Shown piece by piece: positions 5,873-18,297 of a stretch of 27,476 nt of DNA. Location: the IMG/VR virus record IMGVR_UViG_3300028962_000002, one strand, 5' to 3'. Origin of the DNA: a virus. Its lineage: Duplodnaviria > Heunggongvirae > Uroviricota > Caudoviricetes. A program made the position numbers and the translations under genes. A model generated the notes under the pieces. The model did not search any database, was not told the DNA's origin, and saw only the letters and a list, made by a program, of their open reading frames with translations. How positions within the stretch are numbered: position 1 is the stretch's first letter; the number at the start of each line of letters is the position of its first letter.

Positions 5873-6418
5873 TCATGGCATGGCCATGAGCATTTTCACG
5901 TCCGCATCACCGTCTGCTGACGTCTGTGACACGCCACCCCGCACCGCTGCCGGTGAATGATTCGCCATGAAATGTTCAAACAGGGCGGTTGTGGATGCAG
6001 AGACCGGTTCGGCCTTACCTGATCCCGCAGCCAGCACAGCCCGGGCGTTCTCCACGGTCATTCCCGGGCAGGCCGCCAGTTTTTCAGCCTGCGCTTCTGC
6101 CCCTTTTGCCTCATCCAGGGCCATGATCTGATCACGAAGTGAGGGCCCGGCATCCGCCAGTGGTGCAGCCGCCAGTTGTTCACGACCGTTCGCTTCTTCA
6201 CACGCCATAATGCGATCGGCTTCACTCTGCGCGGATGCCACCGGCTGCTGCGGTGCCGCCGCGGCCAGAATCGCCCGGGCCTGTTCAACGCTCATGCCCT
6301 GTTGCCCTGCCAGCATCGTGGCAAGCTGTTCACGTCCTTTCGCTTCCTGGCATGTCAGGATCCCCATCACTCGCTGGTTCTCCTGCACGGCGGCTTCCGT
6401 TGCAGTTAATTGCGGCAT
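5873..6418 (-). CDS. Nu3: Scaffolding protein Nu3-like, in-frame internal start within C
   Basis: Internal ATG at 6416-6418 (M302 of C, MPQLTATEA...) preceded by GAGGAGG; corresponds to the position of the lambda Nu3 start within C. Confidence 0.6.
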   Translation of the reverse strand: MPQLTATEAAVQENQRVMGILTCQEAKGREQLATMLAGQQGMSVEQARAILAAAAPQQPVASAQSEADRIMACEEANGREQLAAAPLADAGPSLRDQIMALDEAKGAEAQAEKLAACPGMTVENARAVLAAGSGKAEPVSASTTALFEHFMANHSPAAVRGGVSQTSADGDADVKMLMAMP

Positions 6419-8903: not shown

Positions 8904-9106
8904 AACCTCACTCCCAGCGGACGACGGCGACGGCGGGTTGTCCCCAGTACCAACTCAGCATCATTGATCGCACGGTTAAGCTCATCCAGAGAGGCCGCCG
9001 TATATTCAATTCTTCGTCCATCTTTCTGGACAGACACCACCCGTTTACCGGTTAATAAATCAAGGCGCGCCTGACGCAGCGCCTGCAGTTCAGCGACTGT
9101 AACCAT
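8900..9106 (-). CDS. W: Head-tail joining protein gpW
   Basis: 68 aa, same length as lambda gpW; ...LTGKRVVSVQKDGRRIEYTAASL...RRRR matches. Confidence 0.93.
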   Translation of the reverse strand: MVTVAELQALRQARLDLLTGKRVVSVQKDGRRIEYTAASLDELNRAINDAELVLGTTRRRRRPLGVRL

Positions 9107-12457: not shown

Positions 12458-12784
12458 TCAAGGACGTGACGGCGTAAAGATAAATTGTCTCTTCACTCCC
12501 TGACAGGGGCGATTCTTTTCAAATCGCCATTTCGCCATGGCCTTCACCACTTCATCACGAAACAAATTATGAGGCTCTGAGCGGAGAAAAACGATCCGTG
12601 TCACAGTCCCATCAGCACCAATATCGAACTTAACCTCAACCAGCCCCTTGATATAATTTGCTGCAGCATATTCCGGATATCGTGGATACACCGTCACTAA
12701 TTGCCGGGGCTCATCAGCTTTTTGCTGCGAGCATCCCACTGCCAGGACAGATAACAGAAAAAGTAGTAAAAGGCGTCTTTTCAT
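12458..12784 (-). CDS. Lipoprotein with TonB C-terminal-like domain
   Basis: Start MKRRLLLLFLLSVLAVGC has a lipobox (LAVGC) and an AGGA RBS; mature part VTVYPRYPEYAAANYIKGLVEVKFDIGADGTVTRIVFLRSEP...FRDEV...AMAKWRF resembles TonB_C domains; downstream of Rz/Rz1. Confidence 0.65.
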   Translation of the reverse strand: MKRRLLLLFLLSVLAVGCSQQKADEPRQLVTVYPRYPEYAAANYIKGLVEVKFDIGADGTVTRIVFLRSEPHNLFRDEVVKAMAKWRFEKNRPCQGVKRQFIFTPSRP

Positions 12785-13094: not shown

Positions 13095-13568
13095 TTATTT
13101 CAGGCACTGAGTGCGGATATAGTCCTGTGCCCCTTCCAGTTGCTTGTGCATCGTCATCAGCCGCTCTCTGAGGGTGAAATAATCCCGTGTAACGGTGTCT
13201 GCCAGTTGGGGGCCGGTTGCATTATCCACGCCGGAGGTGGTGGGGGCTTCACGCACGGAGCCTGGACAGGTGGCGTTGATCCGCAGGCGCTTACGACCAG
13301 CGGCAACGTCAGCGCGAAGAGTTTCATTTTCAGCTCTCGCATCGGCTAATTCCCTCGAGTATTTTGCATCGAGCGCAGCAACATCGCGCTGGCGCACCTG
13401 CATATCAGTAATGGTTGCGTTCGCCAGCTTCAGTTCACTGGCTTTGTTATCGCGCTGCGCTTTGTAGGTAATCGCGTTATCACGGTAATGGTCTGTTGCC
13501 ATCCACAGCGCACCACAGGCCACCAGCAGAATAACGATAAACGCGGAAAGCATTCGGTTTATGTTCAC
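13095..13568 (-). CDS. Rz: Spanin inner-membrane subunit Rz
   Basis: [52 protein letters not shown]...[19 protein letters not shown] is near-identical to lambda Rz. Confidence 0.93.
13157..13342 (-). CDS. Rz1: Spanin outer-membrane lipoprotein Rz1, embedded in Rz in the +1 frame
   Basis: ...[47 protein letters not shown] matches lambda Rz1, including the proline-rich core and lipobox. Confidence 0.88.
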
Positions 13569-13696
13569 CCCAGCAACCCCGACGAAGACAACATCATCCA
13601 GGCCATGGAAAGAAAAAGAGCAACCAGCATTAGTGAAAATGAAATGCCGACAATTACACAGAGGATCTTCGCCAGCGTTATGAGTTTGTCTGACAT
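13565..13696 (-). CDS. Hypothetical 43-aa single-pass membrane protein, translationally coupled to Rz
   Basis: ATG at 13694-13696 with a GGGAGGA RBS; [35 protein letters not shown] has one hydrophobic helix; its stop overlaps the Rz start. Confidence 0.5.
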
Positions 13697-13710
13697 GCTT
13701 AATCCTCCCT

Positions 13711-13857
13711 TCACGATTTCAACGCAATGACCAGTTTTGCCAGCCCATACAGCATCGGGGACACAGCAACACCGACCGCCACCCACTTAATGGCAAAAGC
13801 CAGTGCTCTGCTGATGTCATCAGTTACAGGCGCTTTCAGTTCAAGGCCATTTTTCAT
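13711..13857 (-). CDS. Hypothetical 48-aa protein with C-terminal hydrophobic segment
   Basis: Start [11 protein letters not shown]... chosen for its GAGG RBS; lies between endolysin and Rz; the longer upstream in-frame start (13926) lacks a clear RBS. Confidence 0.35.
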
Positions 13858-14049
13858 AGTCAACCTCAACAGAATTCGTTTACACTTCGCCATGTTCTCC
13901 CTTGCCTTACTCAAGGTCAGAAACACAAAACCTCGCTTGGTGCCAACAAACGGGGTTTTTACTTTTATTCACTTACGTTTCGCCAGTTCGCAGGATTTCG
14001 TGTTATCCGCCCGCGTGGCCATTCCTCATTTTTCAGCAAAATATTCTGC

Positions 14050-14583: not shown

Positions 14584-14619
14584 GGATATATTAAATATTC
14601 AGCCGCTGTCCCTGGCCCA

Positions 14620-15513
14620 CTAAATACGCACTTTAAGATAAGTCAGCCCCGGATGAAGCCAGTAAGCCGGCCCTTTTTTAAAGGGTGGAGTATTAAAATC
14701 ACGAAGAAGAGCCTCCCGCACAATTGCATCCTTATCAGCACCACTGGCCAGCGCTTCAATCTCAGCGGCTACCTGAAGATATCCCATGCAACGGCCAACG
14801 CGCTTCATCAGCCCCTGCTTTTTATTGTTCTTCAGGTAATCAATGGCAAATTCAATGAGCTCCTCACTGTGCTGGTGCGATGGAGGTGTTACTTTCCCAT
14901 TTTCTGAGATGGTTATTTTCCCAGCATCACCGGATACAACAAAGGATGGCCGGTTACACTCCCATTCCGGGTCACTGAAATTATCATTATGAATACTGAA
15001 ACACTCTGCGAGATTTCTGCTCATCACTTTCCGACAATAATCGTCAAACGCAGCAAACTGCTTTTCATCGCCAGAAGGCACCAATATCGACCATTTCTTA
15101 TTCAGCTCAACGACGTAGCTCTCCAGTTTTTCAATACGTGATTCAACATCATCTTTTTCTGACCGCAGTGTTGACGGCGGCATCTTCAGAGAACAAGTAA
15201 TTCTTCCCGGTAGCTTTCCTTTGTAGGTTATCAACACATCCTGCGCCTCTAAAATTACGGGGCGCTTTTCCGGCAACGGTTCGTTCCATTCACATAACCC
15301 GGCAGCAACATCCATGAAAAACTGCTTCGCCTGCTTTTTCGCCTCAGCTTCGTAAAACTCCAGCGTGGCACCTTCAGTACGGTCAAGACTAATCGCCACA
15401 TCTGGCAACAACAGCGACGCTTGCCCGTCACCTTCCGACTTCACAGTAACAGTAACCTTATCCCCGTAATTATTTATCCCCTTAACAACCAGTTCATATT
15501 TTTTATTCATCAC
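14620..15513 (-). CDS. Hypothetical 297-aa soluble protein inserted between holin and endolysin
   Basis: ATG overlaps the holin stop (coupled); long uninterrupted frame; no transmembrane segment; no motif recognised by eye. Confidence 0.7.
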   Translation of the reverse strand: MMNKKYELVVKGINNYGDKVTVTVKSEGDGQASLLLPDVAISLDRTEGATLEFYEAEAKKQAKQFFMDVAAGLCEWNEPLPEKRPVILEAQDVLITYKGKLPGRITCSLKMPPSTLRSEKDDVESRIEKLESYVVELNKKWSILVPSGDEKQFAAFDDYCRKVMSRNLAECFSIHNDNFSDPEWECNRPSFVVSGDAGKITISENGKVTPPSHQHSEELIEFAIDYLKNNKKQGLMKRVGRCMGYLQVAAEIEALASGADKDAIVREALLRDFNTPPFKKGPAYWLHPGLTYLKVRI

Positions 15514-15514
15514 T

Positions 15515-15730
15515 TTACTCTCCCCGCGCCGCCTTACGCCGGTCCTCTTTGATTTTGAAATACAGGTTAGTCAGATATGTCAGCAGCCCAAACAGCAGAC
15601 TCCCCAGCACGCCTATTGCCGCCCACTGAGACGGGGAAACCCTGTCCAGCAACTGCAGGAACCAGTAGCCCGTTCCCACCGCTGACGTGGTGTATGACAC
15701 ACCTGTTGTGATTTTTTCCATCTGGTACAT
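15515..15730 (-). CDS. S: Pinholin (phage 21 S-like class II holin), dual-start motif MYQM
   Basis: [71 protein letters not shown], 71 aa, colinear with phage 21 S71 and with the same C-terminal tail; a second Met at codon 4 corresponds to the S68 start. Confidence 0.9.
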
Positions 15731-16037
15731 ACCCCGTCTCCCGTTATCCGGAAGCTGACAACAATAAAAAAGCCACCAGTTAAGTACTGATGGCTCTGAT
15801 AACTCATGCAGGCGTCTCAGACGACCCACTGACACTACCGGTGAGTTTAACGATACCTTCCATTTGACTGGCTCACTTTTTATGATGATGCCGGTGCATT
15901 TATCTCCAGCACCAGACTTTCTATCTCAACGCCATACGTTGCATTTTTGGTAATATCCGTCAGCGTCAGTGCATTTAGTCCCACTGCCAGACCGTCTTTT
16001 ATGGCCTGGAATGCCGGGCCAGTACGATGACGTAGTA

Positions 16038-16241
16038 TCACTCCGGCTCAGTTGCACCACTGACCACCACATCACCTTCTGCTGCAATCGCCTGCATCAG
16101 GGTATAAGGGGTTATGGCCACCGGACTACCAAACGGCTGCCAGCCCTCTTTCAGTTTATGTGTCAGCTTTTCCGCAAGATCTGACGGCGACGCCGCCCTG
16201 ACAACATCATAGTGTTTAAATGCCATGGTTCTTTCCACCAT
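16038..16241 (-). CDS. Small hypothetical protein (DUF1737-like), late operon
   Basis: 67-aa ORF ...MAFKHYDVVRAASPSDLAEKLTHKLKEGWQPFGSPVAI...; the family name is from memory; true start may be the internal MAFKHYD. Confidence 0.55.
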   Translation of the reverse strand: MVERTMAFKHYDVVRAASPSDLAEKLTHKLKEGWQPFGSPVAITPYTLMQAIAAEGDVVVSGATEPE

Positions 16242-16486: not shown

Positions 16487-16822
16487 ATGAAGTGGATTGT
16501 GATTGATACAGTTATCCAGCCATCATGCGGAATATCTTTTTCAGTCATATGGAGTAAAATAAAATTAATAATCTGGTATCAATCGGATGCTTTCTTACCT
16601 CCTGAAAGTATATTTACACTGACTCACACAGGTATCATGCTCAATAACAAAGTGCTACCTGTAACCATTTACAACGTAGTACCATTCAATAAAACATTCT
16701 GGAATTTAATCAAAAACAGCCAGGAATGCCCTACAAATACAGATAACGTATTGAATGAATGCTTTAATAACCGTTGCACTCTGCAAATATGTCCTTATGG
16801 GCTAAAACAACAAAGTCCATAA
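16487..16822 (+). CDS. Hypothetical protein in an AT-rich moron island, opposite strand to the late genes
   Basis: AAGGAAA RBS before the ATG; region 16250-16850 is strongly AT-rich compared with the flanking phage DNA; 111 aa, Cys-containing. Not recognised. Confidence 0.5.
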
Positions 16823-17618: not shown

Positions 17619-18297
17619 TATCTCGTCGTGAAAAGGTCGCTTTTTGTTGCGCTCTTATTTTCACGGAGCAAATCAAGGATTCTCTATCGAGGCGCTTAAA
17701 AATATCGCACATCTCACGCCAGTAGTTCGCATAATTATGGCTCCAGTTATCAGGCTTAACTCCACACAGTCTGGCAAGCTCCTGTCTCTGGTAGACCTCA
17801 CACCCGGTAACCCATCCTCTGACATCCTGTGCCGCCAGCCAGATCAACTTCTTCACACGCTCCAGCGTTTTCACTGCAATTTTTCTGGAGCCGGACTGAG
17901 TTTTAAATTCACTCCACCCCCACTGCGTTATCGCGATCTGATGCTCCCAGCAAATGTTTCCGCCATAACACCACAACAACCACGCCTTCTGATGTTCTTC
18001 CAGTTCCAGAACAGCACGCCGCCACGATGATGTTGCAAACTCAACAGGACTGACCAGCGCAATTGATGAGCCTTTCGCCAGTGATTGTTTACCCTGGATC
18101 GGGGGATTATCCCGCGTGATCATTTTTCCGGTTACCTCATCGCGGTAACGAATTTTTTTGCGTCTGTAACGCCCTGTATCGAACAGGGCATTTTCCTGCC
18201 AGGCTTCCAGCTGGCATTTTGTCGACCCACTGAGATCTGCAGTGGCAATCATGAGTTGCTCACGAACAAACTGTAAATACTGGTTATTCATGCACAC
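17602..18297 (-). CDS. Putative late-gene antiterminator (Q-like), assigned by position
   Basis: 231-aa ORF directly downstream of rusA and directly upstream of the candidate late promoter, terminator and lysis genes; no sequence family recognised with certainty. Confidence 0.5.
   Translation of the reverse strand: MCMNNQYLQFVREQLMIATADLSGSTKCQLEAWQENALFDTGRYRRKKIRYRDEVTGKMITRDNPPIQGKQSLAKGSSIALVSPVEFATSSWRRAVLELEEHQKAWLLWCYGGNICWEHQIAITQWGWSEFKTQSGSRKIAVKTLERVKKLIWLAAQDVRGWVTGCEVYQRQELARLCGVKPDNWSHNYANYWREMCDIFKRLDRESLICSVKIRAQQKATFSRRDIAKVN

Follow-up and report, generated by a model that had tools for sequence, protein, structure and literature searches.

The gene between the holin and lysozyme genes

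We examined a 27,476-nucleotide stretch of viral DNA (Caudoviricetes; IMG/VR record IMGVR_UViG_3300028962_000002; hereafter the window), centering on a minus-strand open reading frame (ORF) that lies between the gene for a P21-type holin (S) and that for a lysozyme (R) with a segment like those of signal-arrest-release (SAR) endolysins, and that almost certainly encodes a long member of the YdfR family. The cassette runs in the order S, YdfR-family ORF, R and then Rz/Rz1 (Table 1). An initial reading of the letters and ORFs, made without database searches (the sequence-only reading), had already put a gene for a soluble protein there, flanked by the pinholin and SAR endolysin genes and closely joined to the former, and our analysis bears this arrangement out.

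The frame is open without interruption over minus-strand positions 14620..15513, as first described, and encodes 297 amino acids (aa) when counted from its GTG. We rejected this GTG (15513) as the start, however, because the same triplet is GCG in phages BP-4795 and Stx2_95; the ATG at 15510-15508, which is kept among relatives, is therefore the conserved start, and the product has 296 aa. Nor does the ATG overlap the holin stop, as had been proposed: the minus-strand junction reads GGGGAGAG-TAA-AGTG-ATG, which leaves a gap of 4 nt between the two codons. The same junction serves ydfR in BP-4795 and Stx2_95, and R in phage 933W; close translational coupling of the ORF to S is plausible.

The possibility of a concealed membrane segment was rejected on hydropathy, since the peak 19-residue Kyte-Doolittle value of the protein is 0.75, compared with 1.70 for the holin and 1.74 for the SAR segment of the lysozyme; the sequence-only reading had likewise found no transmembrane segment. 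We estimated the ratio of nonsynonymous to synonymous substitution rates (dN/dS) against two diverged alleles, each ~87% identical over aligned residues, and obtained 0.35-0.38 for the whole ORF. The ratio was below 1 in every module, falling from 0.52-0.55 in the N-terminal 113 codons to 0.30-0.34 in the middle and 0.21-0.22 in the last 117 codons. Given these low values and the hundreds of homologs described below, sequence comparison indicates that the ORF is a genuine gene and not a chance frame. A scan based on consensus sequences found no sigma-70-like site on the minus strand from position 18248, just downstream of Q, to the ORF, and the ORF lacks the flanking promoter and terminator that would mark an autonomously expressed moron; its Shine-Dalgarno-like motif lies inside the holin gene, and R starts 36 nt past its stop. 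Expression should therefore depend on Q-mediated late transcription, which would make the ORF part of the late/lysis operon that Q controls in a Qin-like lambdoid prophage.

Table 1 Features of the YdfR-family gene, its neighbors in the window, and comparable features at related loci (prefix L). pLDDT, predicted local distance difference test; PGAP, Prokaryotic Genome Annotation Pipeline.
Feature	Location	Strand	Basis and remarks
Long-form YdfR-family gene	14620..15510	-	296 codons + TAG; ORF list, junction comparison, PHROG 1085
N-terminal DUF1327/YdfR domain, aa 1-76	15283..15510	-	PF07041; three beta-strands and a long helix, AlphaFold2 pLDDT 65-86; pI 4.8
Predicted disordered linker, about aa 77-118 (AlphaFold2 disorder 71-122)	15157..15282	-	pLDDT 22-33
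Helical, coiled-coil-like segment, aa 119-172	14995..15156	-	Low-confidence helices 119-146 and 149-171; indels and alternative inserts among alleles
C-terminal module, aa 185-296, no Pfam family	14623..14958	-	Conservation; pLDDT 71-91 over aa ~185-270
Holin/YdfR junction	15511..15524	-	GGAG Shine-Dalgarno-like motif in last holin codons, TAA (15517-15515), 4-nt spacer
P21-type class II (pin)holin (S), 71 aa, Met1/Met4 dual-start motif	15515..15730	-	PF04971, E 7.2e-33; PGAP 'class II holin family protein'
Lysozyme R, 177 aa, Ala/Gly-rich SAR-like N-terminal segment	14050..14583	-	PF00959; hydropathy peak 1.74 at residue 9
Rz spanin gene	13095..13568	-	PF03245, E 2e-47; phrog_13
Rz1, embedded in Rz	13157..13342	-	Lipoprotein-like ORF in ORF list
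PGAP-truncated long alleles	L007:15056-15391, L018:2154-2489, L019:2108-2449		Including an allele 100% identical to that of the window
Convergent small ORFs	L012:4854-5114(-), L025:3849-4145(-), L014:4599-4916(-), L027:3809-4126(-)		
Convergent small ORFs	L003:4902-5189(-), L019:1690-1950(+), L002:2958-3218(-), L024:2044-2340(-)		

Family assignment and prevalence

Although the sequence-only reading described the protein as unrecognised, it belongs to a family known to several databases. The Pfam family DUF1327 (PF07041) matches residues 2-101 with 137.9 bits (cut-off 25; E 1.3e-40; profile positions 1-88 of 93), and PHROG 1085, a 296-position profile with no assigned function, matches end to end (residues 2-297, counted from the GTG, on positions 1-296; E 7.6e-190). 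At least 1000 public contigs encode an identical 296-aa protein, for the most part under the NCBI name 'YdfR family protein' but also as 'DUF1327 domain-containing protein' or 'hypothetical protein', and intact 296-aa alleles fall in a protein cluster of 962 members. NCBIfam holds no family for the window protein. A 'DUF1823' label found in PhiR12 phage annotations was discarded; it belongs to an opposite-strand ORF and was not confirmed by Pfam. The family is thus widespread, but it is not the well-characterised lysis-cassette component that would have refuted the first interpretation.

The window ORF is 100% identical to one in a Qin-like lambdoid prophage of Escherichia coli 2017C-4173W12, which also carries Q, rem, hokD, a dicB remnant and lambda-type head and tail genes. 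It is near certain that the window protein is a long, two-module allele of the YdfR/DUF1327 family and the positional counterpart of ydfR in Qin. Among 5426 complete E. coli genomes, DNA resembling the ORF was found in 2703, at 6175 places, and 496 of the genomes hold it at 80% or more of its length (the long form). Matches to the holin DNA were found at 8950 places in 2466 of the same genomes; the two counts come from separate searches whose loci were not paired, but they suggest that this holin type usually has a YdfR-family gene at its side. P21-type cassettes in which S is followed directly by R, the arrangement assumed in the sequence-only reading, do exist, as in 933W, but by these unpaired counts (6175 against 8950 places) they are probably not in the majority among E. 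coli prophages. Beyond these genomes the family appears narrow: an exhaustive search of 1.84 billion representative proteins recovered 74 relatives, and the named members come only from E. coli, Shigella or Salmonella. A scan of genome contigs for a single peptide pattern returned three loci and has little bearing on taxonomic range.

Two modules joined by a linker

We predicted the structure with AlphaFold2. The first model, built from an alignment of E. coli sequences only, was too poor for use (mean pLDDT 51); a second, based on a 67-sequence alignment that includes Salmonella sequences, was usable for two modules. The model depicts a soluble protein in which two folded modules would be joined by a disordered linker (Table 1). 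At 296 aa it exceeds the usual size of DUF1327 proteins, which have a single domain and ~100-115 aa. The C-terminal module, modeled confidently over residues ~185-270 as a three-stranded beta-meander with four helices, comprises 112 conserved aa and is under the strongest purifying selection of the ORF (dN/dS ~0.21). Nine of its positions are invariant in the 67-sequence alignment (H214, L226, G239, G243, L245, Q246, A249, P276 and K278), and six more are nearly so (R240, W284, P287, G288, Y291 and L292).

Profile searches thus place the N-terminal domain in DUF1327 and the whole protein in PHROG 1085, but they yielded no fold relative. Foldseek found nothing at E <= 0.001 in the PDB or BFVD, PDB sequence searches with profiles from the 30- and 67-sequence alignments gave nothing below E 0.019, and a Pfam search of 10 relatives returned no family that covers the C-terminal module.

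Mosaic alleles and relatives in Salmonella

The family is highly mosaic. The N-terminal domain of the window protein is 47% identical to K-12 YdfR over 78 aa, and at least two N-domain allele types, less than 50% identical to each other, are in circulation. Short proteins of 103-116 aa stop within the linker, just after the motif ...GKLPGRITGSLKxPP; forms of 176-183 aa consist of the short form plus the helical segment, and those of 268-333 aa have further inserts and the C-terminal module. Some proteins (P0057, P0173) end in a different C-terminus. The helical segment and C-terminal module also occur as a stand-alone protein of 185-213 aa, whose gene comes right after that of the holin and is followed in turn by a distinct 75-aa DUF1327 ORF. 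One protein found on 129 contigs (P0017) fuses a K-12-type N-domain (81% identical over 74 aa) to the C-terminal module of the window, and thereby ties results obtained with K-12 YdfR to the long form.

Some relatives have only the last ~115 residues in common with the window protein. These are 'hypothetical proteins' of 189-338 aa from Salmonella enterica prophages, with no Pfam annotation, and they follow a comparable plan: an N-domain rich in beta-strands that closes with an EGKxLEQYKxEL helix, a variable linker bearing an LEKRL-type helix, and the C-terminal module. Comparison of the E. coli and Salmonella sets with hhalign related their N-domains with 92% probability (E 7e-7) and their C-terminal modules with 100% (E 1.5e-38); the proteins are otherwise 24-31% identical, yet the C-terminal module keeps invariant motifs. 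In one Salmonella protein of 192 aa (P0149) the N- and C-terminal parts are joined with almost no linker. Because E. coli and Salmonella share the N-linker-C plan, we infer that this plan is probably the older state and that short YdfRs would be deletion derivatives. We also considered that a short ydfR might be a long gene decayed in situ, and rejected this for BP-4795, where the interval S-ydfR(114 aa)-R is compact and holds no remnant of the C-terminal module; such alleles are therefore clean deletions or products of recombination.

The many truncated and rearranged alleles could be taken to mean that the gene is a functionless remnant, a recombination mosaic retained merely for its place inside the operon. 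The little effect of overproducing K-12 YdfR (PMC13232886) would fit this, as would the pseudogene flags that PGAP attaches to the gene in some genomes. In the three RefSeq genomes inspected, all three long alleles are labeled 'YdfR family protein, incomplete, missing C-terminus'. These flags are an artefact: the calls end after the first ~112 codons, where a common short allele would stop, and they include an allele identical to that of the window (Table 1), so that the C-terminal module is missing from those RefSeq protein sets. Intact 296-aa alleles in a large cluster and on at least 1000 contigs, the low dN/dS of the C-terminal module and motifs that are invariant between E. coli and Salmonella sequences also speak against decay. 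On these comparisons we regard the remnant explanation as very improbable, and it is strongly disfavoured.

Many Salmonella and E. coli variants, though not the window, carry an ORF of 86-105 aa on the opposite strand, convergent with, and sometimes overlapping, the 3' end of the YdfR-family gene (Table 1). None of these small ORFs has a Pfam match. They form several small families with weak likeness across genera (L012 against L025, E 4e-5; L002 against L012, E 0.002; both from a tiny database).

Position beside the lysis genes

In all E. coli phages and prophages inspected the family gene begins 4 nt past the holin stop, and the order S, family gene, R recurs in K-12 (essQ-ydfR-rrrQ), BP-4795, mEp460, HannyBb and Evi. 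In 933W, R follows S directly through the same 4-nt spacer and the family gene is missing. The presence/absence polymorphism for which the sequence-only reading had suggested looking is therefore real: the gene is absent from 933W, and BP-4795, mEp460, Stx2_95 and K-12 Qin each have a family member. The 5' end of R itself encodes MNTKIKYG... in ydfR-bearing cassettes and MSRKLRY... in 933W. R is preceded in the ydfR-bearing cassettes by a spacer of 36-50 nt with no obvious Shine-Dalgarno sequence (14584-14619 on the minus strand of the window; L020:2346-2395); in K-12 there is no spacer, the stop codon of ydfR overlapping the beginning of rrrQ.

The Salmonella loci are organized differently. 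Five homologs at nine loci come after Q and a moron (HicAB or an ADP-ribosyltransferase-like pair) and before the holin, lysozyme, Rz and terminase genes, in most cases with a convergent small ORF in front of the holin. At these loci the lysozyme gene directly overlaps that of the holin, and both HP1-type (PF16080) and P21-type (PF04971) holins occur. The most divergent member of the family, on a metagenomic contig, lies just upstream of a P21-type holin-lysozyme-Rz set in which S and R likewise overlap. Insertion inside the lysis cassette, the feature that the sequence-only reading had stressed, is thus not conserved. As Salmonella and divergent homologs sit upstream of the holin, and next to two holin types, the comparison of loci indicates that what is conserved is a place at the 5' end of the late/lysis operon beside the lysis genes, and not insertion between S and R or partnership with a single holin.

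This constant company raises the question of whether the protein takes part in lysis, as a cytoplasmic regulator or chaperone whose translational coupling to S would hold the two products at a fixed stoichiometry. Such a protein might adjust the triggering of the pinholin, or keep the SAR endolysin competent for export; for these roles there are precedents in T4 RIII, a cytoplasmic protein that acts on holin T, and in Gp1 of phage Ms6, a chaperone of LysA. The gene stands beside holin, lysozyme and Rz genes at all loci examined, and its product has an acidic N-domain, while the cytoplasmic tail of the holin is strongly basic. The Keio ydfR mutant also appears on lists of strains with envelope defects, positive with chlorophenol red-β-D-galactopyranoside (CPRG), in the Paradis-Bleau envelope screen cited in PMC13232886. 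There, ydfR is found in the supplementary lists alone and is absent from the main text, and essQ and rrrQ are not listed (PMC3879167).

Several observations sit poorly with this explanation. Two unrelated holin families adjoin homologs, so that there is no obligate co-occurrence with one family, and the Salmonella loci with HP1-type holins weaken the case for a pinholin-specific partner; 933W has the same holin type and a near-identical junction but no such gene. The holin is nearly invariant (at least 95% DNA identity in most genomes), whereas the gene beside it is hypervariable, which is unexpected of a specific binding partner. Overproduction of K-12 YdfR gave no growth or envelope phenotype (PMC13232886), and given the overlap of ydfR with the rrrQ start, the Keio phenotype may be a polar effect, with transcription from the kan cassette running on into the lysozyme gene. 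Profile and fold searches found no likeness to any known antiholin, chaperone or lysis regulator. We consider a lysis accessory role a tentative possibility. A lysis regulator was among the three roles put forward in the sequence-only reading; the other two, an anti-defence factor and cargo on the late transcript, are likewise still candidates.

The same polymorphism and the extreme mosaicism between near-identical flanking S and R could instead indicate conflict-type cargo, that is, a moron on the late transcript with a role in anti-defence, anti-abortive infection or superinfection exclusion and none in lysis or RNA decay. Variable modules would then track variable targets in hosts or rival phages, and the gene would occupy a recombination hotspot at lysis-gene junctions. 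Other junctions are loaded as well: related phages carry ant or an N6/N4 DNA methylase gene between R and Rz, so that the cassette seems to accept cargo at each of its junctions, and between Q and the family gene there is HicAB or an ADP-ribosyltransferase-like gene. The narrowness of the family, with its 74 representatives, also accords with cargo. A search of PADLOC-DB, on the other hand, gave no credible defence match, the best being PbeC over a 64-residue helical stretch (E 0.018, 11.3 bits). With no promoter predicted for the ORF, and with ydfR near-silent in uninduced K-12 (almost no reads; PMC13232886), a defence role expressed in the lysogen is unlikely. A dN/dS below 1 in all modules also argues against cargo, and the two-module plan and lysis-gene adjacency are kept across genera beyond what would be expected of random cargo. 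Overall, this explanation seems unlikely; were the gene passive cargo, the finding would be an ordinary one, valuable chiefly for correcting the 'unrecognised' label.

A possible connection to RNase E

The sole functional study that we found concerns K-12 YdfR (Göpel et al., RNA Biol 2026; PMC13232886); a literature search on ydfR with envelope or Qin returned nothing beyond this study and the envelope screen. A two-hybrid screen that used RNase G as bait yielded the first 72 codons of K-12 ydfR three times, and this fragment gave stronger signals with RNase E constructs (Rne1-597) than with RNase G; full-length K-12 YdfR interacted with Rne1-597 only. Strep-YdfR co-purified FLAG-tagged Rne1-598 together with DNase-resistant nucleic acid, and overproduction caused no growth arrest and changed few transcripts (PMC13232886).

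One explanation that draws these data together, to which we assign a probability of about one in three, is that the window protein is an adaptor that docks on RNase E and alters RNA decay late in infection. It would be a dispensable accessory protein of the cytoplasm, whose synthesis would accompany that of the holin from the beginning of the long late transcript. Its acidic DUF1327 domain would attach to host RNase E, on the catalytic N-terminal half, as judged from residues 1-72 of K-12 YdfR, and the disordered linker and helical segment would tether this domain to the conserved C-terminal module, which may bind a second partner or carry an effector activity. The effect would be changed RNase E-dependent RNA decay rather than disruption of the envelope. 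The common YdfRs of 103-114 aa would be truncated derivatives that keep the docking domain alone, which would explain why so few transcripts changed when K-12 YdfR was overproduced. The two-module plan common to E. coli and Salmonella, the strong constraint on the C-terminal module, the solubility of the protein and the position of its K-12 counterpart are in favor of an adaptor.

This interpretation must be made cautiously, however, as a number of points weigh against it. The window N-domain is only 47% identical to K-12 YdfR, so that RNase E binding by the window allele is a prediction by analogy, as are the adaptor logic and any effect on RNA. Profile and Foldseek searches detected no likeness in sequence or fold to known RNase E modulators or RNA-binding domains. 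RNase E is highly conserved, and a conserved target leaves the mosaicism of the locus unexplained, with its N alleles less than 50% identical and its several alternative middle and C-terminal modules. The adjacency to holin, lysozyme and Rz in every genus sampled fits a lysis-linked role at least as well. Finally, the published evidence consists of two-hybrid signals and co-purification from lysates, with no functional effect on RNase E, and its authors could not exclude a contaminant in the RNA pull-down (PMC13232886).

If the RNase E adaptor were generalized, the long-form YdfRs of temperate lambdoid phages, Shiga toxin (Stx)-converting phages included, would be effectors aimed at RNase E and would form a class not described before, in which DUF1327 docks, the C-terminal module acts or binds, and RNA decay is reshaped at the onset of late transcription. 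This broader proposal is speculative, and we think it rather improbable. Were it true, the effect could extend to toxin and virion yield, since the stx genes are part of the same late transcript, and the short YdfRs, present in half of E. coli genomes, would be disarmed remnants, which would account for the weakness of their phenotypes.

Comparison with characterized proteins

The closest characterized protein is K-12 YdfR (b1555, P76160; Qin), which has a homologous N-domain, the same position between P21-type holin and lysozyme genes, and the same tight coupling to the holin gene. It differs in being a 103-aa single domain with a short helix, whereas the window protein adds the linker, helical segment and C-terminal module, and it is the only family member for which RNase E binding has been reported (PMC13232886). 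Full-length homologs with the N-linker-C plan and the S-gene-R position include the Stx2_95 protein BCI50300.1 (329 aa; 77% identical to the window protein) and the other long forms of PHROG 1085, from Stx-converting and lambdoid phages; these differ by inserts in the middle segment and by their N-domain allele, and have no assigned function. The Salmonella enterica prophage proteins (for example P0151, P0213 and P0149) resemble the window protein in domain plan, in their homologous C-terminal module and in their late-operon place by the lysis cassette. Their N-domain is homologous by profile comparison but falls below the Pfam threshold for DUF1327; they differ further in their low overall identity (24-31%), in a location upstream of the holin, after Q and a moron, and in their association with HP1-type as well as P21-type holins.

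Phage modulators of RNase E include T4 Srd, which targets the N-terminal catalytic half of the enzyme, T7 gp0.7 and phiKZ Dip, all products of early or middle genes of virulent phages. If the adaptor explanation holds, the likeness would be that of a phage protein acting on host RNase E in lytic growth; no sequence or fold likeness to them was found, and the window gene belongs to the late operon of a temperate lambdoid phage. With T4 RIII and Ms6 Gp1 the window protein has in common its solubility, small to medium size, position beside holin or endolysin genes and co-expression at lysis time. Unlike them, it is encoded by a gene that phages with the same holin and lysozyme types can do without and that is not tied to one holin family, and there is no homology.

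Implications for annotation and for work on YdfR

About half of sequenced E. coli have prophages with a YdfR-family gene in their lysis region, many Stx phages among them, and the family has no assigned function. Because the two-module plan is probably the original one, work on the 103-aa K-12 YdfR may have examined a truncated protein, and the long form, whose C-terminal module is more constrained than DUF1327, the part that has a name, may be the more suitable form to study. In the searchable literature we found no account of the family plan with its fold-orphan C-terminal module under stronger constraint than DUF1327, of the sharing of this plan with unannotated Salmonella prophage proteins elsewhere in the late operon, or of the PGAP partial-pseudogene calls on long alleles. 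The results sharpen an open question and reveal no new kind of system.

Other genes of the lysis region

Between Q and the lysis genes the window carries iraM (plus strand, 16487-16822), a moron at the place where Stx phages have stx/nanS-p. IraM is an anti-adapter protein that inhibits RssB-mediated degradation of RpoS. Upstream of the holin (15880-16241, minus strand) lie a 67-aa DUF1737 ORF (16038-16241), treated by PGAP as a truncated pseudogene, and a 53-aa ORF; together these look like the remnant of the large DUF1737-SASA esterase gene (nanS-p/yjhS) that Stx phages carry at the same position. Between R and Rz (13565-13926, minus strand), PGAP calls hypothetical proteins of 43 aa (~13565-13696) and 60 aa (~13711-13893). 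Downstream of Rz is a TonB_C-family lipoprotein-like gene (12458-12784, minus strand), where lambda and 933W have bor; this arrangement recurs in a divergent relative (L029, 3062-3394). Lastly, a terminator-like hairpin with a 12-bp stem and a T-run (15769-15797, minus strand) lies just upstream of the holin start, within a longer, GTG-initiated holin frame, and could attenuate late transcripts that lack Q modification before they reach the lysis genes.

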